From Catajapyx aquilonaris (lineage: Eukaryota): DNA of 64,000 nt. Of the stretch, positions 26,099-64,000 are shown piece after piece; position 1 is the first letter of the stretch; each line of letters opens with the position of its first letter. Both the position numbers and the translations under genes were made by a program. The stretch covers positions 62,001 through 126,000 of the forward strand of contig KZ538058.1 of assembly GCA_000934665.2 (NCBI GenBank), given 5' to 3'. The notes under the pieces were generated by a model. It had not been told where the DNA came from and searched no databases. It worked only from the letters and a program-made list of their open reading frames with translations.

Positions 26099-26424
26099 NN
26101 NNNNNNNNNNNNNNNNNNNNNNNNNNNNNNNNNNNNNNNNNNNNNNNNNNNNNNNNNNNNNNNNNNNNNNNNNNNNNNNNNNNNNNNNNNNNNNNNNNNN
26201 NNNNNNNNNNNNNNNNNNNNNNNNNNNNNNNNNNNNNNNNNNNNNNNNNNNNNNNNNNNNNNNNNNNNNNNNNNNNNNNNNNNNNNNNNNNNNNNNNNNN
26301 NNNNNNNNNNNNNNNNNNNNNNNNNNNNNNNNNNNNNNNNNNNNNNNNNNNNNNNNNNNNNNNNNNNNNNNNNNNNNNNNNNNNNNNNNNNNNNNNNNNN
26401 NNNNNNNNNNNNNNNNNNNNNNNN
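26099..26424. other. Assembly gap (326 N) flanked by poly-G
   Basis: Run of n characters, with G homopolymers on both sides. Confidence 0.99.
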
Positions 26425-32128: not shown

Positions 32129-35100
32129 TCAGAGAGCGTCCCGATGCCAGATCCACTTCTTGTTGGTGTGGTCAAAACGGTGGCCTAACCACTGCTGCTC
32201 CAACAGGTGGTACCGTTCTCTGCTCAAATAGAGCGGTTTACCTCTCCTGCAAAGGGAAGAAACAATCAGCATACATTTAACCGTTCATCATTAATTCGCG
32301 AGAAATGCAGGTGGCTCGATTCCATTGTTTTCGTCCGATATCAACGGTTCTGACAAGTGCTATCAAGCACCTAGTGGCAAATTGAGGATGCCACGGAAGC
32401 ATGCAAAAATTGGGCAAAAAGGCTCACTTGAGTTCTCTATCTTCCTCTCCAAAGCTGTCTAGATATACGGAGCCCCACAGGCAAGCCCGTTTGCCACGGA
32501 TCACTATGATGGTGGACGAGTTCACCGCCAGAAACATGGCTGTTCCTGCCCCGCAGTCAATAGAGTGCTGAAAAAAATAGATAGCGATAAATCTCAGCTT
32601 GTGTGTGTGAATCTCTGTACATAATCAGATATTTTCCCTTAAGGCCACTTCACAAAAAAATGTCGCGCGGCAAACGGCGCGCGTTGCGGCAAATTTATTA
32701 TTTATATTTATTATTGCCAACAATTGGCAACAATAAATATAAATAAAAAATTTGCCGCGCGACATTTTTTTTGTGAAATGGCCTTTATGCTTTCATACAC
32801 CTCCTTGACATGTAATGGGATGGATTCCAAGCGAATCATGCATCTGAGAAGATCGGCTTTACCTGCACTGCCTCATAGACATTCTGCTGTTTGCAACAAT
32901 TGTCTCTTAAGCAGACCATAGTCCCACAGAGCAGGCAGACACTAGGCTCCTTTGGGACGGAGTTGCACTGCGGACACTGCTTCCGATGGTAGTACTGAAA
33001 GACGCGGTTGTACGACTCTGGCAGCTCCAGGAGACGGGGCTGCTGCCACTTGACATGCTGGTCTATCAGTTTTCGAGCTGCGATCTGGCTGCGATTCACA
33101 AACACTGCGTACTCCTCGCACCAGGTGTGCACAATGGTTGCAGCATCGTGGGGTTCAATCCAGTTCGCTGCAAGTGCTGCATTGAATTCGGTTGCTTCAC
33201 CTGTGGGAGCCACCAACCCTAACGAGTATATGAGCGCCACAAACTCGTTCTGGTCGGTGGTGTCCTCATCAGGGAGCGGATCTGAATAAAGGTGGTTCTG
33301 GAGAAGTGCTGCCATCCGCAAGAACGGAAGGCACAGCTGCTGGATCTCCGTTTCAAGCTCGTCCTGACTCCAGTCATGAACAGAGGCATAATCAGCATCG
33401 CCATAGTCACCATCCTCAAGGTACAGCTGGCAGCTCTCGAGTGATTCAATGACAATAGAGAGTGTCGCTGGGAGAGTCCGTAACGAATTCTCCCCACGTC
33501 CCTTCTTCTTCCAGCTAGTCCGACCCTCCTCGGTCATCTTGCAAGTGGTCTGTGCCACTGCTTGAAAGTAGACCACGTTGTAGAAGGCTTTTACCAAGCA
33601 GGCGAAATAGGCAGGGTCAATGTACAACGGGAGGATCAAGACCAACTGGATGAGCAGGGCATTCATGTCTCGCAGCAGCAAGGGAACCTCCTTCTCGTAT
33701 GTCATGATGATGGACGATGCCATTGGATCTTGCCCACATCCAACTATGTGCGACCACAGCTGGGCGTATGAACGAGCTGTCAGGATCTTGGAGTGTGTTG
33801 CCAGCACATGGATGAGGGGTACTGCAAAACAAAACAAATGTACAGTATTACGTATTGCAACATGCTACTGCAAAATAATACCTTACCTATGCATGACCTC
33901 TTCGAGGTTGATGAGGAAGATGATGATGAAGAGGCGGAGGATGCAGTGGCCTGTTGACTTCCCCTGTCGCAGCAGGACGCCAGTCCCCCTCCTCTTTGCA
34001 CCAGCTCCATCTCCAGGTTGGTCCTGGCTATAGAGCTGACAAACAGGAACAGGGACTCGGCACTCGGGGAGGTGATGATCTGCCTGTACTTGGGGTAAGT
34101 GATGCCCGTCATCTCCTCCATGGACCTGCCCATGGCTTCTAGCAGAGGGTTGTTCTTCTGAAAGGCATGGTGGGTCTGGCATTGACACACACAGCTTGTA
34201 ATCAGAATCATGAGAATACTCTCTCTTTTTAAAATCTCCATAAACTATTCATTTTGTACGTTACCAGTTATGTGTTACAATAAGGCAATGGAATCCTACA
34301 TATACACTGAAAGTTGAACAATTTGCATACCAGTGAGGGTGGCTCCCCTTTGAGCAGCTCGCCCAGCTCCTGGGCAATGGAAGCCATCCCTCCAGACCTC
34401 TCTCTGACAATGGCAGCAACGTGTCCCATGTCAGGTGAGACGGGAAGGACAGAGTTGGCCAGTTGACGACAGACTGGGCAGGAGTACTCCCCTCTGTCCA
34501 CAGCCAGATTCTGCTGTCTCTGCTGGGACTGCGGCCCCCGAAGAGATTGCAGATATGACTTGAGGCAGTCAAGGTGGAGGTGATGGCCACATGTCTGCAC
34601 ATGGACGCCGCCTTCCCAACCAATGTTAACTGACAGCAACCAAGAAAACTGTAAGAAACAAAAATGGCATTGGATTTATCCATAATTGCAAACACTCGTT
34701 ACAGACAAAAAAATTACACTCACATTGTCGAAGTGCTGCGTGAGTTCCTGAACTCTCCTGTCGAACTCAGATGCAAGGCTGTCTTGCGGCCGGAGTCTGT
34801 TCCTCTCCTCGTCGTTGGTAGGTAGGACTAGATGAGCAGTGGACTTATGCTTGTGACTAAGGACACTAGTGGCCTGCAGCAGCACTACGAGGCCCATGGG
34901 CTTCTCCTCTGTTGATGGGGTGGTCTGGTTGCATATTGCGCAAAAATACTCCTCCTTCTTCAGCAGGCAAGACTCAGCAGAAGGCAGCGGAGAAGAAACA
35001 GGCGACTTCTGACTCTCTTCTCCAACTCCCTCGCTTGCCTCTGCTTCCATGGCTTGCTCCATCCAGCGTTTTTGTCTGGCAGCAAACTCTGCCATGACCT

Positions 35101-38100
35101 TCTGCTGTCTTTCCTGAGCTTTTCTCCTCCTCTCCTCCCTCTCCTTCGCCTCTCTTGCTTTCTTCTCTTCCTCCCGCTCTTCTAGCCGTTTTGGCCACAG
35201 CCTCTCACGTGTCTCCAACACACACCTCTGGCAGCTTGAGTCCAGTCGAGATATGCGATCCAGTACCTGTCATGGGTTACACACATTTAGGATTTTCCCA
35301 TGGCACACTAGTATTCCATTCCAACAAGGGCAATTGCAGGTGCTGGTACTTACCCTGGCGATAAAGAAGGGGCCATCCCCAACTCGGCCAACATCCTCCT
35401 CATCCCTACTTGAAGCACCTTCTCTCTCAGTCACAGGGATGTAGCTGTCTTGCATTCCAGTAAGCTTGGAGTGAAGTTTCAGCAACAGGGATATGATACT
35501 CTCCTGCACTTCGACTTCAACCGGTGCCTTCGTTTGCCCACGAGATGTCTGCGAAAGACACAGGCCATGCTGTTAAAATAATTGGCATTGCATGTGCACA
35601 AAAAATGTTAGTACCTGGACACTCGCATCATGGTGCCTATCAAGTGGCATGTCTTGTTTCCTCTTCTTGAAGGTCCCTCTGGACCGTCTCCTCTGCACTG
35701 CCAGCTCGTTGCCAGCCGTCAGTGCGGGAGGAGATGCTGTAGCCGCCATGTCCCCACCCATTCCCCCCACTGCCACCCCATCGCTGCCACCCAGCGCTGC
35801 CACTGCCGCCACCTGCCCGTTGCTGCTCCCACCAGCGCCTAGTAGTAGGGGGGCAGTGATGGCAACTGGACCCATGTGATGTGGGACCAGTGCACCAGTG
35901 TTGTCCACAGGTGGGTGGTGGGGAGGAGGAGGAAGCGGAATAGCGTGTGGAGGTGAGGGAAGTGGGATAGCTGGAGGTGGGGGTGGCAGCGGGAGGAGGG
36001 GCAGCGGTGCAGCCAGTATAGGAAGCATGCCATTCATGTTGTTCCCTGCTAGGATGGCCAGGTTTGGGTTGTGGTCGGGGGGAAATTGTGGTGGTGAAGG
36101 TTGAGGGTCGACCAACGACAATGTCTGAGCTGGAAGAGAACTTGGGGGGAATCTTCTGCCCTTCCACCGAACACCACCCTTTCATAGGATCTTCTAAAGA
36201 GAATCGCTACCAATGCAACTCGCCTCTCTTACTGGATGTCTTTTTCAATATTTAACACACTGTGACACTACAATGTTTGGTGCCACACAAAATTTGAAAC
36301 TTAAAAATCACTCAAGTAGAAAAAGAAAAGATAGAAACAAAAGTCCGCTGTTGATAACCCAATCGCAAAAATATATAAAGAAAAAAAAGACAATGAGGTT
36401 TTGCTGATATAACCTTTTCATAAGACCACTTAATTTCGTCTGTGTTTTATCTACTTACGGAAACATGAATTGATTATGAAAAGGGCAAACTGGCTATCTT
36501 ATTGTGGCATCAGAGCTGACTCACGTCAGGAGGAAGCGTTTTATTATGCCACTTGCATAACTTGAATTTCCAATCATCCAGTATGAGATCATGAAATTTG
36601 TCCTGTGGATTTCACTGAGGCGGAATTTACTGTCTGTTAATTGTGTAAGCCAATAAGTGACAGTAAAAGTCAAAAGCACTGAAAGAACTAATTTTTTTTC
36701 TTCAAATAAAGCTGAATGTTCTTTCAATGTGAAAAAGATATAATAATTTTATCAATTACACATACATCTAAATTTCATGAAACCCATGTCACACACTTTT
36801 CAGCAACAAGACCTGTACACTGACCTGTTGGATTTGGTGACACAGGCACAAGCATCCCACCCTGGTGACTCCCAGCAGGAGGCAACGCCAGAGGCTGCGG
36901 ATACCCCGTAAGGGCCGGATGCTGCAGCCCTCCTTCCAGCATCATCCCAGAGCCACCGTCAGCTCCACTTGACTCCGACACTTCCGCTACCTCTCCCTCT
37001 GCAGTTTCCACATCCATCTCTTCTGCAAGATTGTGAAGTGTAACTAGTTATTACCATGTAACTGCAAATATCACTGTTTATAAGGACCATGGTTGTAACT
37101 TGTCTAGCTTAAGAAAATTTAGAGATGACAGCAATGACCACAGGATTTCATATTTTGTCCAATTCAGTATGTAGATTTCTCTGTGGTAAGTTTTTCTGTG
37201 CTGGTGATAATGCAACATAACCTTGAGTAGTTAGGGAAAAAACTTTTTCTAAAAAAGAAGAGGAGAGATTAGTCATACCATCCGAGGTCTCAGGAGTGAG
37301 CAAAGGCCTGACCCTGATCTTGTCAATGGTGGTTCTAAGGTTTGCCGAGAGCCAGTCGTTCTCAAACCAGTCGTTAAACTGCAGGTCATGCCTCTCTGTG
37401 GACGCAGCTGCGCCTGAGGCCTCGCACACCTTCTCCATGGCTCCCCCTCGCTCCCTTGCATGTGTGTGTGCAATGCACATGTCCAACAGGTAGATGGCCA
37501 AGGACATGACATGCTCTGATACACACATGGTGTGTACTGCTTTGTACAGGATGACCAGCGTAACTGCATGGAAGAACCGGGAGCACAGCAGCTTCTGTGG
37601 ATCTTCATAGGCTGGATTGCAGGGGGACGGAGGGCAGAATGGGGGCCAGGGTGCATCCGTGCCTTTAAAACTGTTATTCTGCCTCATGCTGAAAGGGTGA
37701 GAAGGAAAGAAAATGGTTAGAGCCTCCTCAAAAATAAATTTTCTTTACCAAAAACCAAAATGATCAGCATTATTTTTTTGAAATTACAGTGAAAAAAAAA
37801 CAAAACAGCACAGCTGCAAGACTTGCGCAGATCGAGTTCATAGGAAAAGTTGCAACAACGTTCTTCTCAAATTCTAGTATTTCCCACTACATCCCAACAC
37901 TCAACATTAACTACTGTGTACCCAGTACGAGTAAATTTTCCTTCCAATTTTTTAAAAAATTGACCACTTACTACTGGGTGTATCTGTCCATGGAGGTCTG
38001 GAAGTCCCTTCTGTGCACAGCCCTCAGCAACACGTATATGGGATCGTACAGCTTCTCCCACACTTGCGGCTTGGGCACATACATTCCCTGCAGCATATTT

Positions 38101-41100
38101 CCACCAGCCTCGAAGTTGGGTGCCCTGTAGTCCGCCACCTCTGCCAAAACTGCCTCAAAGTCCCTCCCTTGTGAGCTGGTGCCGCACTTCTCTGGCATAA
38201 GTTCCATCAGCTGACTGTGGGTCTTGTCTCCCATGCACAGAAGTGTCACCATCTCCAATCTTGCTAAGTCAGATTCAGAAAGCCCTGGAAGAAAATGTAG
38301 TTTTTTTTTAAATTTAGGAAAACAACTGATTGCATTTAACATCCAGTCTTTACACTCCAATTCATTTGGAAGAAAACAAGTGCACATTCCTCGTGTCACA
38401 CTGTATATAAAAAAATTAGTCATACCAATATTGGTTCGGATACTGATGAGTGTAGCTAGGAATGTCAGGCAGCTCTCCAGCATGGGCATCTCATGCTCAG
38501 CATCCAGGAAGGTGTTGGTGGCATAAGGGGCCAGACTCATCCATTCCATCACATGAAACCTGTCACAATTTGCATTATTAATGGACTCAGCTTATTCTGA
38601 CTTGAGGTAGCGCGTGAGACGTACCTGTCTAATACCGATGTTAAAAACACCTTTGAAGGCAGCTGGGTGGCACACACTTGCAATAAGTAGATGTCAGCAT
38701 CCACCATGGAATTGCAAAAGTGGCACTGGATATACGTCATAGCCTGTCCCTTTATTTGGAGTCCGTTGCGCACCCACATGCCACACAAGATCTCATAAAA
38801 TGCCGCCTGGAATGAAATGTAACAATAAATTACCACTAGTCAATAGCTATACTATACTATACTAGAAAACTGTCAAAGTTCAAGGGCAGTTCTTTTACTT
38901 AAAACATTAAATATTCCAGACATGCCATACTTCTTACAAAGAATGAACTTCACATAACTTGGATAAAACTGCGCAATACGAAGTGATAATGCATTAACTG
39001 ATTGGCAAACCACAGTACGAATATAGCTCTCGTTACAATAGTTACAATAAGGACGTTAGTAATTTGCATTCCCAAGCTCCTATCACATGATAAGGTTATC
39101 TCAAGTGACACATGGCTTATTTTATTCTGACTAGAGAATAACTTGCCTCCAGATCCCTTGGAAATATCATTTAAATTCAGTTGAATTGTAACAATTTAGA
39201 CTTCCAAGTCTGTCCGATTTCTCTTTGAGACACATTTCTACTTCAAATATTCATGTAAAAATTGCCAATAAGGCTGTAACAGCCAAAAAAGTCTATTTTG
39301 CTGGGAAAAGGTGTAGCTCAAAAGTTCTGATAAACTCTAAAAGCCCTAAAGATTTTTTGTTTTTTGTTTTAAATTCTTCCTTTAATGCCAAGAAGCACAG
39401 TAGGGTAAATTCTGCACTTAAACAGGCTCTGATTAATTTTCAGGGGTGCACGCTTAATGTTTCGCAGGGTTTGAGTACATCTTGCACTTGGAATCGAACA
39501 GCCACAATAAATACTGCGTGTGAAAAAGATTGCGTGGTGTGATATTGATTTGTGAATGACAAGAGTTCAGGGTCACATGCAAGAAAAATATTATATTCCA
39601 TCGATCTGCAGTTCCCATTCAACCCAGCTCTATAAATCGACTCATCATCTGAACACCAAAACGTCTGACACAAGTGTCGATTTTTGACTCGCACCATAAT
39701 TATCATCATAGCAATAGGCTATCAAAATAGGAAAGATTGCGGAGAAATAAACATATGTCAAATTATAAGCTAAGCTTTCAGATGGCGAAAAAATTGTACC
39801 CTGAATTTTCTTGGCATGTAAGCTGCATGACTCCTGCTAGACAGATATCCATCAAGTTGAAAGGAGACTCAATCAAATAATATTACATGATGGGAGTTTG
39901 GACACTTGCCACAGTGTCAAGCAACATGAACCTGATGGCCTCACTTCCCAGTCAGTAGTCACAGGGTGCTACTGCACTGAACAATGAAAAAATGTGTTTG
40001 GCGTTTTTTCTTGCAGGATGCCTCTGGTACCCAGAATATTACCATGTTTATTTGTTTCGACCACAATGACTGGTATTTATATGGGCAGCTGCCTGGCCAT
40101 CAACAAAACCGCATTCAAAAATGCACGCTTCAGACTTGCTAATGCAATGACATCATAGCTGCCTCTGAGATAAGGGAAGAGTGTCTCATGACCCCAACCT
40201 CTCCTATACATAGGTCATGAACAGCGGAAATGTATAAATATCAACTGAATAAGCATTACTAGCGGTGAATCATCCCAATATTGAAAAATAGAGCATAACT
40301 CATTCACATGCAGCACTAGTAAGGCTGATGTGACAAGGTTGTCTTGCGTGTCATTCCATTGAGAAGGACATGCTGTATCACCATGTTTTGTGCACTTTGG
40401 TGTCCAGCCTTCATAAAAAACGCGCATTAAACATGAACCCATTGTGACAACTCCCGGAGAAACAGACGCCCAGGTGGTCTTAAAATAATATCACAATGTT
40501 GGCGCAAAAAGGTCCTTCAAAACCATGGCCATCTGAAGACTTGGACTTGGAGGCCTTCGCACCACAGCTTCCTCATTATGCTCCCTGCTTCCAAATCCTC
40601 ATTTTGGCCATTTTAAGCTGCCAGCTAGGTACAAGGTCACCTACATCTTGCATAATTACCGGGCCATCGACGGCTAAAAGAACAGCCACAGATCGCATGA
40701 CAGCCATTGCATGAACCTTTAAAAAAATACATATATGCGATCGCGTTACGTGCTTTTTATACAATTTTTTTTCCCACTGCGAATACCTCCGGATATCCCG
40801 CCAACATTCCACCAAGGGAGTTGAATAGCACATGCAAATAATGGCTGAATTCATGACGAAGACAGGAGATGTTTTTCCACCCCTCCATCAACCTCCGCGC
40901 CATGGACAAGTAGCACATGCGCACACCCAATCTCTACAGGCCAGCAAACCGCTCAAGAAAAAGGCAGGGGGCCCTCCTTGAGCTTTTCAGTCTGCCTTGC
41001 GGAACCCCCCTAGGTTCACAGGAGAAACTAGGCCAGTACTTCCCTATACAAAAGGTGCCTATCCCAACCAACCCCCCATCATTTTTGGTCAGCGTCACAG

Positions 41101-44100
41101 CAATTGGCAGTTTCCTCTCTAGTGTCCATCGGGGGCTGTACAGAGTGAGCAACATGAACCTGAGGCTCCCCAGCCTGCTTCTGCTGGTGGGTTGCTGGGT
41201 GCCAACAACCACCAACGGACAGCTGGAGGCTGCTGGCGACATAGCCCACTACATTCCGTTAGGTCTGGGCCTGGTTGAGCACCTGTACCAGCTTGGACAG
41301 AAGCTATTCAAGGACTCCAACTTCAACTTGGACATCGATTTGGGACGGGGATTCGAAAGGGAGATACTGCGAGAGATCAAGCTGGTCTATGAAGTACTGG
41401 ACAAACACTCATCGAAGGTACGTTTGGGGTCGGAGCCACGCGGCGCATTCCATTACATTACACGATCTCATCCCGTATATATAAAACAACAATGCTGAGT
41501 TACGATAATGGTGGATATCACGCTCAAATGCCCCGCGGCCACTTTCGCTTGCACCAGGAGAAATCTTCCGGCCTTGCGAACCTATACTAGGCTTGAGATC
41601 AAGGCTGTACGAATCAAATCCATACAAACTATTACATCTCGTCAAAGTCATGAATGGTTGGGGACAACACAATGCGTCATGCGCAGGGTTCCTTCTCAAG
41701 TTGCGAGCTAACTTCATCTGGCGGTGTAATTTGATCGGTAACCTATACGTGTGATTCATCATAAAAGACCTTGACAGGTTTTTGTTGTCTGAGTAGCTTC
41801 TTTTGCCAACCGGACCGGATCTGGCAATCTTACAACGTTCGCAAGAAATCGGAAGCATTTATTATGGAGTGCTCTCAGTGCACCTGTATTTTCTGTATAG
41901 ACTTTCGAAAGCGGATTGCGCATCATAAGTTTTACAGCTGCACATGTTGCGTCACTATGTACAGTCACATATTACGATGTACGCTGAATCAATATCGACC
42001 AGTACTTGCCATCGACGGGCTCGGGTCTGACTTGAAGGCATGTGGAATATTTTGCTTCATTATCGTCTCAACATCCGTATTCACCCGCTCGTCTCTCGCA
42101 ATAAAGAATTGCATCTCATACTCAGGAATGTGTCACCCGTTGCATTTAGTACACGTTTTTCTTGTCACATTATCACCTTTTTGTGAGATATAGCACGCAA
42201 TTTATCCTACTGAACCACTTCCGACAATGGCTTTTTTTTTTCCTTTCTCATATGTGCCTGCTTTCACTTTATATTCATAATCTGCATTTATCTTCAGCTG
42301 GAAGCAGCCCAGGAATCCCTCCGAGAGCTGACCCAACTTCCTCGCGTGGTACGATGGCAGCAGCGGATGGACAGACTGGCCGAATACATGCGTGTCCTCC
42401 TGTCACTGGACCGTACCTTCCACACCTACCAGACCTTCAGGGATCAACTCAACCCAACCACCCTCCAGAACTTCGCCCAGCAAGTGGTAGGACACGACTC
42501 CTCATCAGTTGGAAGTGTCCTGGACTACATACACGACATGGTGGTGCCCTACGATGCAATCACAGGTCAAGGCATGTTCACTATGCAGCTCGACGTATTC
42601 AAAGTAAGTCCAGTAGAATTCGCCCAATTCATTCCCAATAAAAAAGTAAAGATCAACGATTGCTAAATCGCATGGTGCATTTAGCAAAACAGCTAATTGC
42701 TCTGATGACACGAAAAACGGTAGGTTAGAAGTCACGCGTGAGAAATACCATGCACTGTTAATCATGCGGACCCCCGTCATTACCAGGTAGCTCCTCCGAT
42801 CGTAGGATTGAAAAAAAAAAAAAATCTATTGAAAACATCCTGCATGCGGTCACACCCATCCGCAAAACAAGATTAAAATCGGACATGAATTTCGCTTACG
42901 TAAGTGTTTTGCATACACATTTTCGACAATCCCGAGTTATCCGATAATTCCAAGAGAAAGGCATGCGCAAACACAATTCCTCAACATGTTTTTCGACACA
43001 AAATATGGACCATAAAACTATATATCACAGGCCCTCAAATTTCTGAGGAATTAGGGCGGACCTTCGGAGACTGGACCGGAGAATAAAAAAATAAAGGTCA
43101 TTCACCGTTACAATGGCGTAGGTTGTACAAAGACCCAAGAAAATATCTGCCCTGCAGCCACGACCTTTTCAAGCCTTGGAAAGATTGCCCTTCACTGGAT
43201 GCATTGCATTGGGAGGAAGTGATAAGTGAAACTGAAGACTTTTGACGCACAGTATGCACCGATTACGTTGCCCAACATCGATTATACGAGCAGCATTTCG
43301 TGATCCATTTAATGCTCACTTCAGAACAATGGATGGACAGCCCTTTTTATTACTTATTCACGAACCATTTCCAGGTAGCGTGACTCATGCGTGTCTGTAC
43401 CGAACGTCCTTGCCAAAAATAACGCGTCATTGGTCACACTGTTTCCAGAAAAAAGAGCACGTGTCAATGCATCTGAAAAAATGCTCCCCTATTGTATTTC
43501 CCAGCAACATTCCATCTCAGCCCAACCAGTAGATAGGAAGGGGGGGCCAAAAAAAATGGGGGGTGGGGACGTGTTGTTGATTCCAGAGGGCAGATTCTTA
43601 ATGGCCTGTAACAGACCGAGGACGTGGTAGATAAGTCCAGACCGCACTTGTTTGTGCGTTGCCGTCACTCAGCCAACTCCACTTATCTCAGAACCTCAGT
43701 AGTGGTCAGACCTCTAGATTGGCAGTGCGCAGTTGGAAGCAGAACCAAGAAGATGAAGGCTGTGGTGCTGCTGATGCTGCTAGGTGCAGTATGTGCAGCC
43801 AACAAGGGGACACCGGTTATGTCGGTGTCGCAACAGAGAGAGCGCACCATGGGATTCTTTGACCTGCTGTGGGCCTTCATGGAGGATGAGGATCCTACGC
43901 CGAGGAGCAATGAGATACTGGGGAGCATGCAGAGAAACCTGTTACCACGGATTAAGGAGTTTGATGACATGCTGGCACACACAAATGCAGAGTCCAGTTT
44001 GTATATGATTCAGGTGGGCATGTCGCTGTATCCAAGTGGTAACGGATGGACCGAGGCTTGGGGGCTGCTGGAGATGCAGATGGCACCCATGCGGGGTCTC

Positions 44101-47100
44101 TTCGACTGGATCGGAAGACACCAGGAGAGGCTGGATTCAAGAACGCTGCTGGATTATGCAGAGACAGTGCTCACGTCTGGACCTGGGTCTGTGCCCGAGG
44201 CAATGATGCAGCTTGGAATGTCACCACTGTCAGACAGGGGTGTATTTTGGCAGTTGCTAAATACCATAAAGGTGAAAAATGACCGGTTCAGAAGGTGGTA
44301 AGCATGGTTATTGGAATGTGGTATTAACTTGTGGATTGGTGTCTTTACAGAACAATCCGCAGATGATGTGCAGCACCAAGCAGTCTCCAGCGCAGTTGCT
44401 GTACAGCTTGTACAACCTGATTGCCATCACAGAGATCAAAGGCTACACCATGATGCACTTCTCCTGGCTTGTACTCCAATTGCACAACAAAGGTAAGCAC
44501 ACTTCAACAAGACTTCTTGAGATCAGCTGAATTATGCAATGCCATGAATTCACTTGAAGTGATGGTAATGAGTTTTCTAAACATGCCACATCTTGCAACC
44601 AAGCTTTCTGACCTACAGTCACTCGACCCTCCCGACCTTTTGGTATAGCCATAATATCAAGCATTCAACTGTCACTGTAGGTGAATGTGACATATCTGAC
44701 GTGCATATGGAAAGTAGAGCAATGAAAAATTAGACTTGGGCCTATTGCCAATAGTGACATGTGCAACATCATGCTGTCCTGTACCGATTTCTCTTAATTT
44801 TAATTTGAACTGATGCTGCAAAAAAAATTACATTTGAGCAATAATTAGCCTGTATTCAGATTGTTGTTTTACCTGAGAGAACCTACATTCTAACAGATAA
44901 TATACTTAATTTCAGGTAACTTCTCCGAGGAAGCTAAGATTGCCCGAGACGATCTAATGCGTCGATCCCGAGAGAAGGCTGCTGTTGCACAAGAAGTTAT
45001 GTCCAAGATGACTGCAGAGTATTGGCGTTGCGACCCAGACCGCTATGAGGAAGGTACCAACTATCTGCAGATGACACGCCTACTGCAGGGCTACATCGAG
45101 AATGAGCTTGACCTCAACACGCACGAGACCTGCAAGCAGACGTGTGGGTACTACACCTACGCCAGGTCAGAGACCTGCTACAAGAACCTGTTCTGCGCGC
45201 AACAGAAGCGGTGCAAGGGACGTGTTGTAGACTGCCAATTCATCGACTCTGATTCCACCGTGTGCCTCTCAGACTCACCAAATCGTCGTTATGACTGGGT
45301 TGAGTATGAAAATGGACGGGTACTTGGAAATAAGGGCTCCTGCTCCCGATCCAAGAAGGTGGACAGCTGGTGGCGATGGATATTCTGGCATTGCTCATAC
45401 TGTTTCTGCTTCTGTGATGAGGCTGGCGCTGATTCTGACCGCTACTTCAGCATGAAGGAGAGCCTTGCTGACATGACAAAGAACAAGGTTGTAACTGGAG
45501 TGCGCTGGGTGAAAGTCAACCGCATCTTTCACATACAAGTACAGCAGGGTGTTGCCTTGACATCTGGGGGTGTCAATGAATCAACAGTTGCATGGGTGAA
45601 CGTGCCAGCAGTGTCCATTGACAGTGGCCGTGATGGTACTGACTATCATATGATGTCTGGTGACCGTCGTGGCTTGGATCTTGATGACCTGCATGTACCA
45701 GAAAGCCACGTCGTGACTGGAGTCCGCATGCGTCGCCTTGGCACTAACCTCAACCTGGAGATCCGGGCAACTGCTATGGACTTTGTAACTGGAAAACTGA
45801 AGCCAGCTGTGTCACTCTGGATTAGCAACGACAACACCCCAGCTGCCCTTAAGAATCCACGCCAGAAGTTGACACTGCGGGAGCCGGATGTGCCAACGAA
45901 GGCTAGGGCAGCAAACATGCCAGACAGTCGCTCAGGGCAGTACTTGGAATTCACTCACACCTCACTTGGAAAGGATGTGGCGCAAACAACAGTTCCTTTC
46001 ATCGATGCCCAGCCTGTCGCAGTTCAGCCTCCATCATGGTTGGATGGTATTGGAATAATGCACCGGGGCACATCTGGATATGGTGGGTTTGTCTCTCTGA
46101 AGGTGTTCACAACAAACTACACCAATTACTTGGAGGAGCCTATAGTGGACATGTCTGAGTTTCAACGGTTGGTGAAGGAGGAAGATCACGAACCCATGAA
46201 GATGGCACCTACGACAACCCTGCCACCAGTTACAACTACCAGTACCCTGCAACCATCAGTTACAAACACTAAGTCAAGCGAGGATGACCGAAATAATGAG
46301 GTGTGAACAACTGATTGCAAAAAATTGCTGACTTTTCTGCCATGAACTGGCTCTTAATTTTAATGTGTACAGATGGGGGGGTTTGAATCATTTGCAGTGT
46401 TTACCTGACTCTCGCTGCACTGCATCTCATTGTATCTTACTGAATAAAAAGGCGTTTAAAAAGCTAATCGTAGAGTGAATTCAGTGTCGCACGGACTACG
46501 TCATTGGTGTTCTAACCTACACATGGGCTTAGTTGTACCAATTCAATTAAGAGATCGCAACTGATGACGAATAGGTATTCACAGTGTGTAATAGGATATT
46601 TTCTCTTAAACACGTCAATTACGATGATTGCTTTATGCATGCAAATGGAAGCAGTAATTCTTACAATGCGGAGGCAGGCCCTGGTGGACAATTCAGCATT
46701 GACAAGTGCGCATAAAATGATATCTGATGACCACGATATCCTTGTTTTGAGCTATTTCCGCATAGCCTTGCCCTATCTCTCCCCACCCCAAAAGCCTTGA
46801 ACCTCTCCGAAGTGATTGGGATCACCAAACCATGCTTGACATCCACAATAAGAATTTTTTAAAGTAAAGAAAAGAGCCACTTTACCTGAACCTGCAGGGG
46901 ATGCATGACCATCAGGTGCAATATGTTGGGTGGAGGAAGGACATCCGCACAACTCAACTGCTGCTTCTTCACTGCCTGGCTCATGAATACAGCAAAGTAA
47001 CGATGTAGCGGGAGGTGAAAAGACACTTGGAAGGAGTCCGCCTGAAACAAAATTACAAACACCCAATCAATAACATATCCTTAGGTATTTTAACAGAGTT

Positions 47101-59995: not shown

Positions 59996-62900
59996 ATGGA
60001 GTATGCAGGCCTTACCCACTATGAGACATCTCTAGCAGGGGGACCAGAAGAATTGTTATGTAAGTATTGTTTCCTTCCCTGGCTCATCGGATTGGCCGTC
60101 ACATACAGGATAAACGTGTTCTTCTCGTTTGATCAGTGTATGGAGGAGAGAATGGGCACTATCAGGAGGAAGGTTACGTGACTGATGCTGACCAGTTCAC
60201 ATCCGACTATGGAGATGCTGAATACAGAGAGAGCCAGACCATCATGGCTGATGGGGCGGACAGGTTCGGAGTGTCTGCAGTCACCTTTGATCTGCAGGAG
60301 GAGCTTCTTTGGATGGGGAACCAAGGAGTGAGTGTGTTTAGCATCGTACTTAAGTGCTCCCCTTGAAATTACTGTAATACCTTTATGTAAAGGAGGATTT
60401 TTTTGTATGTGACTAAATTTGGGAATGGGAGAAATCATTTGGTGAGAGATTCATTAGTAAATACTAATGGTATTGACACCTATGCATCTTGAGTAATTTT
60501 AAATATCAATCTTGAAGATTTTAAAATAATGTTTTTTGCTGAGAACGTGGCTTTTTCAAGGGGCATGTCACATCATACTACGGGCCCAATATGGAGAAGT
60601 ACACATCATTCCAAGTCCACGCGGACCAAGACATACGGCACATACACCCCATGGATGACAGCATCCTGGTGCTTACCCAAAGTACCTTGAGGTGTCAACT
60701 CAGGCGAGGAATTCCCATCTTCACTCACAGGTGTGACATCAAATGACCAGAATTGAATTTATGCATTGTTGAAGAGTGAACCAATTAAAAGTACAATAAG
60801 ATTACAAAAGCAGTGAAGAGACGAAGTTACAAATTGTTCACTCCAGTGCTCACTTTAAAATTGTTGCCTCTTTAAAATTGTTACTGGAGTAGACGATGCT
60901 TACTTGTTCATCAACCCTGCTCTTGAACTGGCGGCTCGTACAGTGCACTAGTGGATGTTGTGATGGGAATGTGTTTGTTTTACAGCTCTCCCGACATGGT
61001 TGAAATGCAGTGTTTACTTCAAACGTCACCTACAACCATACTGATGGGTGGCCACCAGGACAAAGTAATTGAATTCGATTTTTCAAGAGGCACTGAAACA
61101 AATCACGTGAGTTTTTGGATCCCTGCAGTTCTGCAAATAAACTTCCTGTTGGCTTTTTAATAAATGCAGGTGTCAGTCGGGGAGAGTGGGTGTGCTATCC
61201 TTCGCCAGCATCCACGCTTTATCTGCTGCGGCGAGCCCTCAGGACAGATATCCTTGCGTGACCCAAACACCTTGAAAGTTGAACACTACCTGGACAGTCA
61301 CACAGGAAGCTTATCTGACTTTGACATCCATGGGAACCTCATGGTCACGTGTGGATTTTCAAACAGGTTTGTTGTACTGTACAAGGTCATCTGCTGGCCA
61401 AGTTGACGATCCAATATGGCGGAGAATGGCTGGGATTATAGAAAGGTCATCCATTGAGGTCATCCGCCAAGTTTGATTACCTTTCCATGGGGTCAATAAT
61501 AATAGTCCATGAACTTGCCAGCACTGCCACTCTTTGGATCTTTAACCTGCATTTGAGTTCTGGGAAGCATGTTTTTAATGTTTATATTTTGTTAAGGCAT
61601 GGCAACCTGGCAGTGGACCATTATCTGATGGTGTTTGACATTCGCATCCTCAAGTCTGTGAGCCCAATACCAATGATGATCGAGCCTCTGCTTCTGCGCT
61701 TCATGCCATCATTCTCATCCCGACTGGCTGCTGTCTCAACAATGGGGCAGATGCAACTAATAGACACTGTTGCCCTCTCAGATCCTAGCCTCTCCTTATA
61801 TCAGGTAAGAAGATTGCTAAATTAGATGCTGGCATTGAGATGGCACATCAGATTGTCTAGCTCGGAAAATTTTATCATGCCCCATCTGGACCATTACAGG
61901 TGAATACAGCTGGATCTGTGTGCCTGGCTCTAGATGTATCTTCATCGTGCCAGAGCATGGCTGTTGGAGATGCAGGAGGAACCATCCACTTACTTACCTC
62001 AAACCCCACGGCCCTTTTCAACTCGTATTCCCGCCCAACTGAGTTTGCTGATCCTGTGGAACCCCTGGAACCCATCAGCTTCGACGATTTCCTCGCACCA
62101 CTCTCTGCCATCCCACTTCCAATCACTGACAGTCCACTCCTGTCAGACTGGCCCGAGGCCTTCTGCCAGAAGACGTATAGGTAAGCAGATTTAATTCAAT
62201 AGCAAGATGCTAATTGAAGGCTCTGGTAAATGCTGTCCATTGGTGATGCTGTTCTAAAAATTGACGTGTGGGCTACGTTTTCTGCAACGTGATCACGAAT
62301 TTATTGGTGTCATTTGGTACTTCTCACTAGGCGGCTGCCTCCAATAGATCCAGAGATACTAAATTCAATGAAGATCGTGACCACCATAGGGTATGCTCCA
62401 AATCCAGCAAACCGTAGAAGAAACCAAGTAAGATAAGCTGACTCGCTGTTCAAGTCAGGAGGCAATACATAAATTGATTTCTTCGTCACAGGTACCTTAC
62501 AAACTGGAGTGCAAGAGCTCGACCTCTTCATCTATGCAGGAACAAAGTGCAGTTGAGAAAAGGGATGAACCTCAGTTCATACCAGTGCCTCGAGAGTACA
62601 GGAAGTTGGAGGTCAAGTACAGCAAGATGGGGATGGAGGAGTTTGATTTCAATCGCTACAACAAGACAGGCTTCTCTGGGCTGGAGTCGACTCTGCCGAA
62701 CTCGTACTGTAACCCCATGCTGCAGGTAAAGTTACCTTGCTGTCGTGTAAGGCATGGGAGGGGTAAATTAAGAATTTCTTAATCGAAGCATGAAATGGGA
62801 GGCTTTGCCATCTAAGGGCCGGCGCAAACGGGGCAATTTGGAGGCAACTTGGGAGCAACCCACCCACCCAGGACGGCACAGCACATGCTCCTCTGGCAAT

Positions 62901-64000
62901 GACCGCGTGCAGATTTCCTGCAGCCAAGAAATTTGGGGCCGATCTGGGTGTGCTGGCGTAGTCTGGGTTGGGCCGCAACACTTGTACCCTCTAGATGGCG
63001 ACATGAGTACTTGGATATGTGCGTGCAAGTTGCCTCCCTCCCACATTTCCCCGTTTGCGCCGGCCCTAAGATTGTGACATATGACCAACATGAATTTGCA
63101 ACAGCATAAGTATCCTGAGCAGGGAGGATAGGAAAATGCTTGAGATGAATTGAGGTCAAACACCAGAGTATATGCAATATGTGCTATTTGGTGTTTCTTC
63201 CCTCGTTTTAAAGGTCCTATTCTACATGGAGCCGGTTCGGGCAATCCTTCTGAGCCATGCCTGCCGCAAGGAGTTCTGCCTGGCATGTGAGCTGGGATTT
63301 CTGTTTCACATGCTGGACACCTCCCAGGGCTTTCCCTGCCAAGCCAATAACTTCCTACGCGCCTTTAGGACTATCCCGGAGGCATCTGCGCTTGGTCTTA
63401 TCCTTCAGGACCATGAAGATGTCATGAAAAAGGCAAATCTACCTAGACTGATCCAGGTAAGACCTGCTGGGGCCACTAGTGAGTTTCAGTAGCATTGCGT
63501 AAATTTGGAAGGGAGAGCTGGCAATCATCATGTTACATATGCGTGATGAGCCGCTCAACTGTTAGTCTTGAAAAGGACAGACGGTTATCATGTAATATAA
63601 CTCTTCCTATATTAAATTTAATCAGCGAGGGGTTCTCTGGGATCATGGCTGCTTTCTTTCGTCGCACTTGGTCCTCGTTCCCTAGTCGTACAAATTATCC
63701 ATACTTGTGATATCCTCTAACAGCTTGTAAGTGAGAGAACGATGTTCATGTTATAGGCAGTATCTGCTGCAGTGTGCTAATATTATTTGACTAAACTGGT
63801 GGGCATTTTTTTTGCAGAGCTGGAACCGTTTTATACTGCAGCAGATACATACAGAGACCCAATCTGGAAAAGAGAGGGACTCAGGGAAGCAGCAGAGGGC
63901 TGGAAATGGTGGAATAGAGGTTGATACATCTGCTGCTGCCGCCTCGGCGGCTGTGACAGCGGGCACAGAAGCAGGGGTCCTGGCCCTGGGCCCATCGCAG
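59996..64000 (+). CDS. PAN2: PAN2 poly(A) deadenylase catalytic subunit (3'-partial)
   Basis: Kozak gccaccATGG at 59996. Exons 59996-60059, 60137-60327, 60561-60730, 60986-61106, 61170-61366, 61597-61804, 61900-62180, 62331-62427, 62492-62725, 63214-63456, 63818-end. WD40 region ([42 protein letters not shown]), linker (LLSDWP, IGYAPNP..RRNQVPY), pseudo-UCH domain ([59 protein letters not shown]). Confidence 0.95.
62816..63066. mobile_element. PIF/Harbinger (Tourist-like) MITE in a PAN2 intron
   Basis: Perfect 18-bp TIR gggccggcgcaaacgggg / ccccgtttgcgccggccc, inner ggaggcaactt / aagttgcctcc, TAA flanks. Confidence 0.85.

Follow-up and report, generated by a model that had tools for sequence, protein, structure and literature searches.

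Can one arthropod gene begin its protein in either of two places and so make two secreted forms of it, and if it can, how old is the arrangement? The question is raised by a locus at 41.07 to 46.45 kb of a 64,000-nucleotide stretch of the Catajapyx aquilonaris genome (GenBank assembly GCA_000934665.2, contig KZ538058.1, positions 62,001 to 126,000 of the forward strand), here called the window, in whose own numbering all positions are given. By its sequence the locus is an orthologue of orion, of the DUF4803 family. In flies, degenerating neurites are located and engulfed by glia and epidermal cells with the help of Orion, a secreted signal. We conclude that the window very probably holds one orion gene with two alternative first coding units, or modules, and two secreted protein products, and that the duplication separating the two module classes (A and B) is older than the split between this lineage and the winged insects (pterygotes).

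According to the accessible part of PMC7988174, Drosophila makes Orion-A (664 amino acids) and Orion-B (646 amino acids) from two promoters, the difference between them being confined to the N-terminal domain; both carry signal peptides, and the signal peptide, a CX3C motif and glycosaminoglycan (GAG) sites are required for function. Deletion of Orion-A alone or of Orion-B alone gave no pruning phenotype (PMC7988174, same part), and the accessible part of PMC10268242 describes the isoforms as redundant after dendrite injury. The published assays, in which deletion of a single form lacks a phenotype, thus offer no reason for having two forms. The initial annotation of the present locus, made from the DNA letters, had cited the two fly promoters and the purely N-terminal difference, in agreement with what PMC7988174 reports in that part, and had proposed the same design here.

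Gene structure and transcripts

The upstream unit, module 1, consists of two exons on the plus strand, 41154-41417 (88 codons, ending in phase 0 before GT and encoding a putative signal peptide and 66 further residues) and 42298-42603 (102 codons), which are separated by an 880-nucleotide GT..AG intron (41418-42297, acceptor AG at 42296-42297). It opens with the ATG at 41154 and ends in phase 0, after 190 codons, at a GTAAGT donor. The downstream unit, module 2, is a single plus-strand exon of 173 codons (43753-44271) with its own ATG and putative signal peptide, also ending in phase 0 before GT, and the whole of it lies inside the 1747-nucleotide GT..AG intron (42604-44350) of the class-A transcript; its own intron, 44272-44350, is 79 nucleotides long and likewise GT..AG. 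Each N-terminus combines a basic start with a hydrophobic core and small residues at -3 and -1; over the best ten residues, the Kyte-Doolittle mean is 2.4 in module 1 and 3.11 in module 2.

Only one set of downstream exons follows, also on the plus strand. Common exon 1 (44351-44492, 142 nucleotides) comes directly after an AG, ends in phase 1 and contains the start of the shared region and of DUF4803; after a GT..AG intron of 423 nucleotides (44493-44915), common exon 2 (44916-46306) encodes the remaining DUF4803 together with a C-terminal part rich in beta structure and a disordered tail, and closes with a TGA at 46304-46306, giving 510 shared codons plus the stop. The 3' untranslated region (46307-46453) has an AATAAA at 46443-46448. 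Joined in silico, module 1 and the body give an open frame of 700 amino acids and module 2 and the body one of 683, each with one terminal stop. Within the window, tblastn found no second common region and profiles of the two module classes (described below) found no third module among 1659 six-frame open reading frames; Rfam returned no match on 38-48 kb. The exon borders, phases, GT donors and single downstream exon set of the initial annotation were correct to the base, and the isoforms of about 700 and 683 amino acids that it expected have those lengths.

This layout was compared, over 40900-46600, with RNA-derived contigs from one public run (X1, of a kind not on record, from one study). 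The run contains half of the sampled words of the locus, which is about the exon share of the stretch, and its contigs lack introns. Record 1 (679 nucleotides) joins 41075-41417, 42298-42603 and 44351-44380; record 2 covers 43688-43997; record 3 joins 43980-44271 to 44351-44380; and record 4 (1680 nucleotides), which starts exactly at 44351, joins 44351-44492 to 44916-46453. All four joints are GT..AG and all fall at predicted borders, and four of the five contigs placed on the locus are at least 99% alike to it with no differing letters. The two junctions on which the proposal of two isoforms had been made to depend, 42603 to 44351 and 44271 to 44351, are therefore both seen in intron-less contigs of this run, the first of them, whose absence would have told against the proposal, in record 1. 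Positions 42619-42809 and the introns lack contig cover and were left out of the evidence.

Word depth was 70.4 for the common-exon contig, 14.3 for the class-A module contig and 13.4 and 6.3 for the class-B module contigs; contig depth is a poor measure, and the gap could be due to 3' bias or to a further first exon outside the stretch compared. Two further low-depth contigs lie partly on the locus and run into unrelated letters at 42834 and 46063, neither of which is a GT donor; they might stem from a repeat, an allele or a chimera.

5' ends and promoters

Do the two modules also have two promoters? As far as the contig edges reach, the 5' untranslated part of the class-A transcript is 41075-41153 (record 1 begins at 41075 and the first ATG is at 41154) and that of the class-B transcript 43688-43752 (record 2 begins at 43688 and the first ATG is at 43753), both on the plus strand. 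The two 5' contigs are separate, with no joint linking them, and neither starts just after an AG. A candidate class-A core promoter on the same strand (41045-41084) combines a TATA-like TATACA at 41045 with an initiator-like TCATTT at 41079, both being regular-expression consensus matches only, and the same kind of scan found no core-promoter consensus upstream of module 2. Each module is probably driven by its own promoter, as in Drosophila; because contigs cannot reveal transcript starts, and their ends do not map them, we infer the two promoters rather than observe them.

A single promoter upstream of module 1 could instead serve both forms by mutually exclusive splicing, with module 2 transcripts also starting at 41.07 kb. 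The blindness of contigs to transcript starts leaves room for such a promoter, as do 17 AG dinucleotides in 43612-43752 and the 47 codons of open frame that precede the module 2 ATG. We nevertheless think it improbable, since no joint into the module 2 exon was reported and the contig of that exon starts at 43688 without a preceding AG, since in a protein fusing the two modules the second signal peptide would become internal, and since the Drosophila mRNAs come from two promoters (PMC7988174, accessible part).

The shared region

The Pfam profile PF16061 (DUF4803), which has a cut-off of 27 bits, matches both common exons, at 44351-44491 (50.7 bits, E 2.1e-13, profile positions 2-43) and at 44918-46303 (288.9 bits, E 4.3e-86), and the two matches together span profile positions 2-255 of 255. 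The Orion/DUF4803 C-terminus of the initial annotation thus stands above the cut-off on each exon, and neither module matches any Pfam family at E<=1. Of 8000 candidates scored with the large common exon, 645 proteins reached E<=0.001; the top 120 of these 645, which are 42-53% identical to it, represent all major insect orders, Daphnia and a barnacle. The top homologues are about 50% identical across 85-92% of the query, the best named hits being orion or single-copy LOC proteins from all insect orders (45-53% identity, 85-92% query cover), and several homologues carry the NCBI names 'orion' or 'chemokine-like protein orion'. Orion is present in a single copy in the window, and its gene tree broadly matches taxonomy.

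All 14 cysteines of the common region are kept, in 107-109 of the 109 rows of the alignment. A CX3C motif, CKQTC at common residues 120-124, has both cysteines in 109 of 109 rows and is aligned to CRETC of the Drosophila relatives; a second pair of spaced cysteines (CFCFC, common residues 210-214) is likewise conserved, and either may be the CX3C named in the fly paper. The RRY motif, at common residues 171-173, is kept in 106, 104 and 109 of the 109 rows respectively.

Classes of N-terminal module

Is the switch between two N-termini peculiar to this locus? We collected 16 isoform pairs (NCBI/UniProt) from the list of homologues. In 15 of them the two isoforms share their last 464-491 residues, and the shared part starts 6-8 residues before an invariant cysteine, as in the window; these 15 pairs represent 14 species of Odonata, Hemiptera, Coleoptera, Diptera and Lepidoptera. 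All but one of the 15 combine one long N-terminus (183-219 amino acids) with one short (154-208 amino acids), the exception being an Ischnura pair with two long modules. The sixteenth pair, from Periplaneta, comes from two separate genes, both of class A. The expectation in the initial annotation that automated annotation would split such a locus is not borne out by these entries, since the NCBI pipeline lists X1 and X2 isoforms with this boundary in 15 of the 16 pairs; the two-isoform design is already visible in public insect annotations.

Two departures from the usual pairing were observed among the insects. Ischnura elegans (P0015-P0017) has three orion isoforms on one body, with two long-class modules and one short-class module, and in Periplaneta americana (P0006/P0078) orion occurs as two separate genes, each observed sequence carrying a long-class module.

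Profile hidden Markov models (HMMs) were built from 15 long (A) and 14 short (B) insect modules. Module 1 scores 73.7 bits with class A and 13.6 with class B, and its second exon, as an open reading frame by itself, scores 66.0 bits with class A; it is shown to be of class A. Module 2 scores 41.1 bits with class B and 16.0 with class A, and this score, together with a tree position of weak support (82/62, below), favours class B. From the lengths, the long class would correspond to Orion-A. Among 79 further modules outside the training set, 20 fell to A and 46 to B, and 13 had scores within 20 bits of each other, these being 11 crustacean-like sequences and two mayflies.

The Daphnia-type and further crustacean-like modules (P0026, P0092, P0102 and the P0052-P0120 group) score 17-45 bits with A and 14-30 bits with B. 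The module tree gathers them in a separate group (94/83) that lies between A and B, and they may represent a third type of module or an ancestral one.

The initial annotation had also held that the ends of the two modules are recognisably paralogous. At the level of profiles this stands: hhalign aligns insect class A with class B at a probability of 95.2% (E 2.7e-8, 150 columns), and the best-conserved stretch of the two profiles, TL.DFA...VS....SV...L..IH, is the same motif that had been quoted. Between the two modules themselves the resemblance is weak. BLASTP of the module 1 exons against module 2 gave no alignment, or one at E 22, and a Smith-Waterman comparison scored 40 against 29.0 +/- 4.5 in shuffles, a score that 29 of 1000 shuffles reached; for the last 75 residues of the modules, 1 of 1000 shuffles reached the score.

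Age of the duplication

A module tree was built by a careful method from 51 modules and 207 columns, with support given as ultrafast bootstrap/SH-like approximate likelihood ratio (UFBoot/SH-aLRT). Module 1 falls within a 21-row class-A set (100/97), which holds in addition 14 of 14 long modules, Periplaneta, Chrysoperla, P0019 and two barnacle-type sequences, and in this set the pterygote A clade is the sister group of module 1 (94/84). A branch of 98/94 support separates the 19 insect short modules from the rest, and module 2 stands with them on one side of another branch, with the weak support already given. No module of the window is more than 26-27% identical to any relative.

The two modules might instead be a recent duplicate specific to this lineage, with the likeness to the fly arising by convergence, an explanation we judge quite improbable. 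It would suit the motif block TL..(F/Y)A..V......SV and the G(M/V)F tail that both modules share, and the failure of every search to find a close relative of module 2. The modules nevertheless lean toward different insect classes, by gaps of 60 bits for module 1 and 25 bits for module 2; forcing them into one clade costs 16.4 log-likelihood units and is rejected (approximately unbiased test, p-AU 0.029); and, besides the lack of a BLASTP alignment between them, a repeat search over 40.5-46.5 kb found no DNA-level repeat connecting them, its one result being a 25-nucleotide two-copy match unrelated to either. Because the modules score toward different classes, the joint clade is rejected and there is no DNA repeat, the A/B duplication is not lineage-specific. 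On these sequence comparisons, it predates the split of this lineage from the winged insects. The ancient conservation that had been proposed, and that would have fallen had the modules formed a species-specific pair, thereby survived the phylogeny. Its age relative to the crustacean groups hinges on where the module tree is rooted.

As for the lineage itself, a quick tree of the common region places the window outside a 29-row pterygote set (SH-aLRT 99), where it groups with the barnacle, Daphnia and others. An exon of the neighbouring UBR3-type gene (32839-33864, minus strand) is 50% identical to that of a cockroach, 43-46% to those of other insects and further matches, and 36-38% to those of decapods and a sea spider. 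Both results fit an arthropod near but outside the winged insects, and nearer to insects than decapods are.

Evidence against and remaining alternatives

Besides the indirectness of the two promoters and the absence of a BLASTP alignment between the modules, several observations weigh against one gene with two ancient first coding units. The class-A junction contig reaches 30 letters into the common exon, one under the 31-letter bridging threshold, and the class-B junction contig reaches 30-32 letters; all of this comes from one run, whose material may be that from which the assembly was made. Most of the insect isoform pairs were predicted by annotation pipelines, and the branch that places module 2 with the insect short modules is the weakly supported one. 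A word-index search with module 2 against longer proteins gave 176 candidates, none at E<=10, phmmer against 1.84 billion representative proteins gave none at E<=0.001, and the residues aligned to the three GAG sites of the fly, including PRQKLT, are partly basic (the site patterns were derived from codons in the accessible part of PMC7988174). A query of the ESM Atlas with module 2 had a best score of 0.76, under any useful level. The short 3' sides of the junction contigs probably reflect de Bruijn unitigs that end at the branch point where two paths merge, and 30 exact letters at the predicted acceptor within 5.7 kb would hardly arise by chance.

Of the other explanations, it is highly improbable that module 1 is a dead 5' remnant, or a truncated gene that reads through its donor at 42603 to the stop at 42664-42666. 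The frame does stay open for 20 codons beyond that donor, and module 1 has no common exons of its own; yet a contig joins 42603 to 44351 across a GT..AG intron with the frame kept, module 1 is intact and scores well with the class-A profile, and its position within class A is the one that the species tree predicts. There is a nearly negligible probability that the contigs spanning the junctions were created by faulty assembly, or that they derive from a paralogue or a different organism: their short reach past each junction and the unrecorded kind of the run would permit it, but their letters agree with the locus, their joints lie exactly on GT..AG borders predicted beforehand, so long an exact match at the acceptor is unexpected by chance, and the window is without a second copy of the common exon.

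Predicted structures

Structures were folded from single-exon pieces. The model of module 2 (with 36 class-B relatives) is all-helical, with seven helices, and is of moderate confidence (predicted local distance difference test, pLDDT, 73.4; predicted template modelling score, pTM, 0.43). The model of the large common exon (with 50 relatives; pLDDT 87.6, pTM 0.82) has a long helix followed by a mostly beta part and a disordered tail. A Foldseek search of this second model (44918-46303) against the PDB returned 16 matches at E<=0.001, in which the rows listed for Vip3 insecticidal proteins of Bacillus thuringiensis range from 4.3e-9 to 2.0e-6. With VIA-align, the model superposes on Vip3 residues ~290-540, which we take to be domain III, at Z 14.7-15.2 over 189-224 residues (root-mean-square deviation 4.0-7.0 A); the next unrelated match has Z 2.5, the Vip3 chains being the only clear PDB matches. 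The shared body of orion may thus have a Vip3-like beta fold. The likeness is one of fold, and of the predicted common-exon model only: the two are 10-12% identical with no detectable sequence relation, and a shared fold does not imply a shared function. A literature search for Vip3 together with orion found no paper linking orion or DUF4803 to Vip3.

Neighbouring genes

Upstream of orion, the minus strand carries, at about 32839-38591, exons that encode an E3 ubiquitin ligase of UBR3 type; they match PRT6_C (E 7.5e-45), a UBR1-like winged helix (1.1e-15) and, weakly, a RING domain. The best match of a UBR3 exon is Periplaneta Ubr3, at 50% identity. The 5' end of this gene faces the class-A start of orion, and the two genes may stand head to head. 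Exons of PAN2 type lie on the plus strand at about 61861-63489; they match UCH_1 (E 2.7e-27) and, below the gathering score, the PAN2 N-terminus (6.2e-4). The sole run of N in the window, 326 bases at 26099-26424, is an assembly gap.

Function and comparison with known systems

On the reading of one gene with two first coding units, either the upstream class-A module, in two exons, or the downstream class-B module, in one exon inside the class-A intron, would start the protein. Each would bring a start codon, a putative signal peptide and a predicted all-helical domain of about 150-170 residues, and, spliced to the acceptor at 44351, would yield a protein of 700 or 683 amino acids sharing its 510 C-terminal residues with the other. 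By orthology, the secreted protein would bridge phosphatidylserine on dying or pruned neurites to the engulfment receptor Draper, as the accessible part of PMC10268242 describes for the exposed phosphatidylserine, Draper and RRY motif of the fly, and the choice of module would probably adjust the place, time or target of action of the shared body.

Their conservation suggests that the A and B modules do different jobs. Against such a difference stands the redundancy of the fly isoforms in both published assays (PMC7988174 and PMC10268242, each in its accessible part). The same part of PMC10268242 reports that over-expression in the fat body is lethal with Orion-A and not with Orion-B, a hint of a difference in potency, and the long retention of both modules at the same boundary argues that the isoforms are not truly redundant, despite the two assays. 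The 'two-ligand system' of the initial annotation is speculation and one possibility; different expression, matrix retention and potency are equally open. We regard as evenly balanced a fuller account in which A and B are distantly related helical domains, duplicated before this lineage and the winged insects split, with class A at least as old as their common ancestor with barnacles, the isoforms non-redundant and the body perhaps folded as in Vip3. If the isoforms are indeed non-redundant, A and B may differ in partner, tissue or timing.

The locus extends the known orion design to one more lineage; as a kind of gene it is not new. A literature search found no paper on the conservation of the two orion modules across arthropods, and both module classes now appear to be present outside the winged insects, which is a modest piece of new content: a class-A module and a probable class-B module, kept at the splice boundary used in insects, turn what had been a detail of Drosophila into an old, conserved feature. 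The residues conserved within each class offer a handle for probing the role of each module, and for annotation the locus is one gene with two first-exon isoforms.

The general arrangement is familiar from clustered protocadherins and UGT1A, in which a constant body is spliced to alternative first coding exons, each of them believed to carry a promoter of its own; those loci have many variable exons and encode unrelated proteins. Within the DUF4803 family, the accessible part of PMC12822402 describes the venom proteins VID-1 to VID-5 of the braconid wasp Asobara japonica and 91 copies that arose by massive gene duplication; the paper has no mention of orion or Vip3 and contains the word 'isoform' once. 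As far as that part goes, the braconid venom proteins have the same Pfam domain and are secreted, but they were expanded and recruited to venom, in contrast to the single, housekeeping-type orthologue of the window. The X1/X2 orion pairs of insects switch at the same point as the present gene, whose modules are sister to the pterygote clades and not inside them. The nearest likeness is to Drosophila orion (CG2206), as described in the accessible part of its literature, with its secreted DUF4803 body, CX3C and RRY motifs and two N-terminal isoforms. Compared with fly-type orion, the gene in the window has a common region about 50% identical to its relatives, GAG sites that are partly basic and a lineage outside the winged insects; with the Drosophila relatives it has in common the same layout and isoform boundary, the conserved cysteines and RRY, and one long-class and one probable short-class module.

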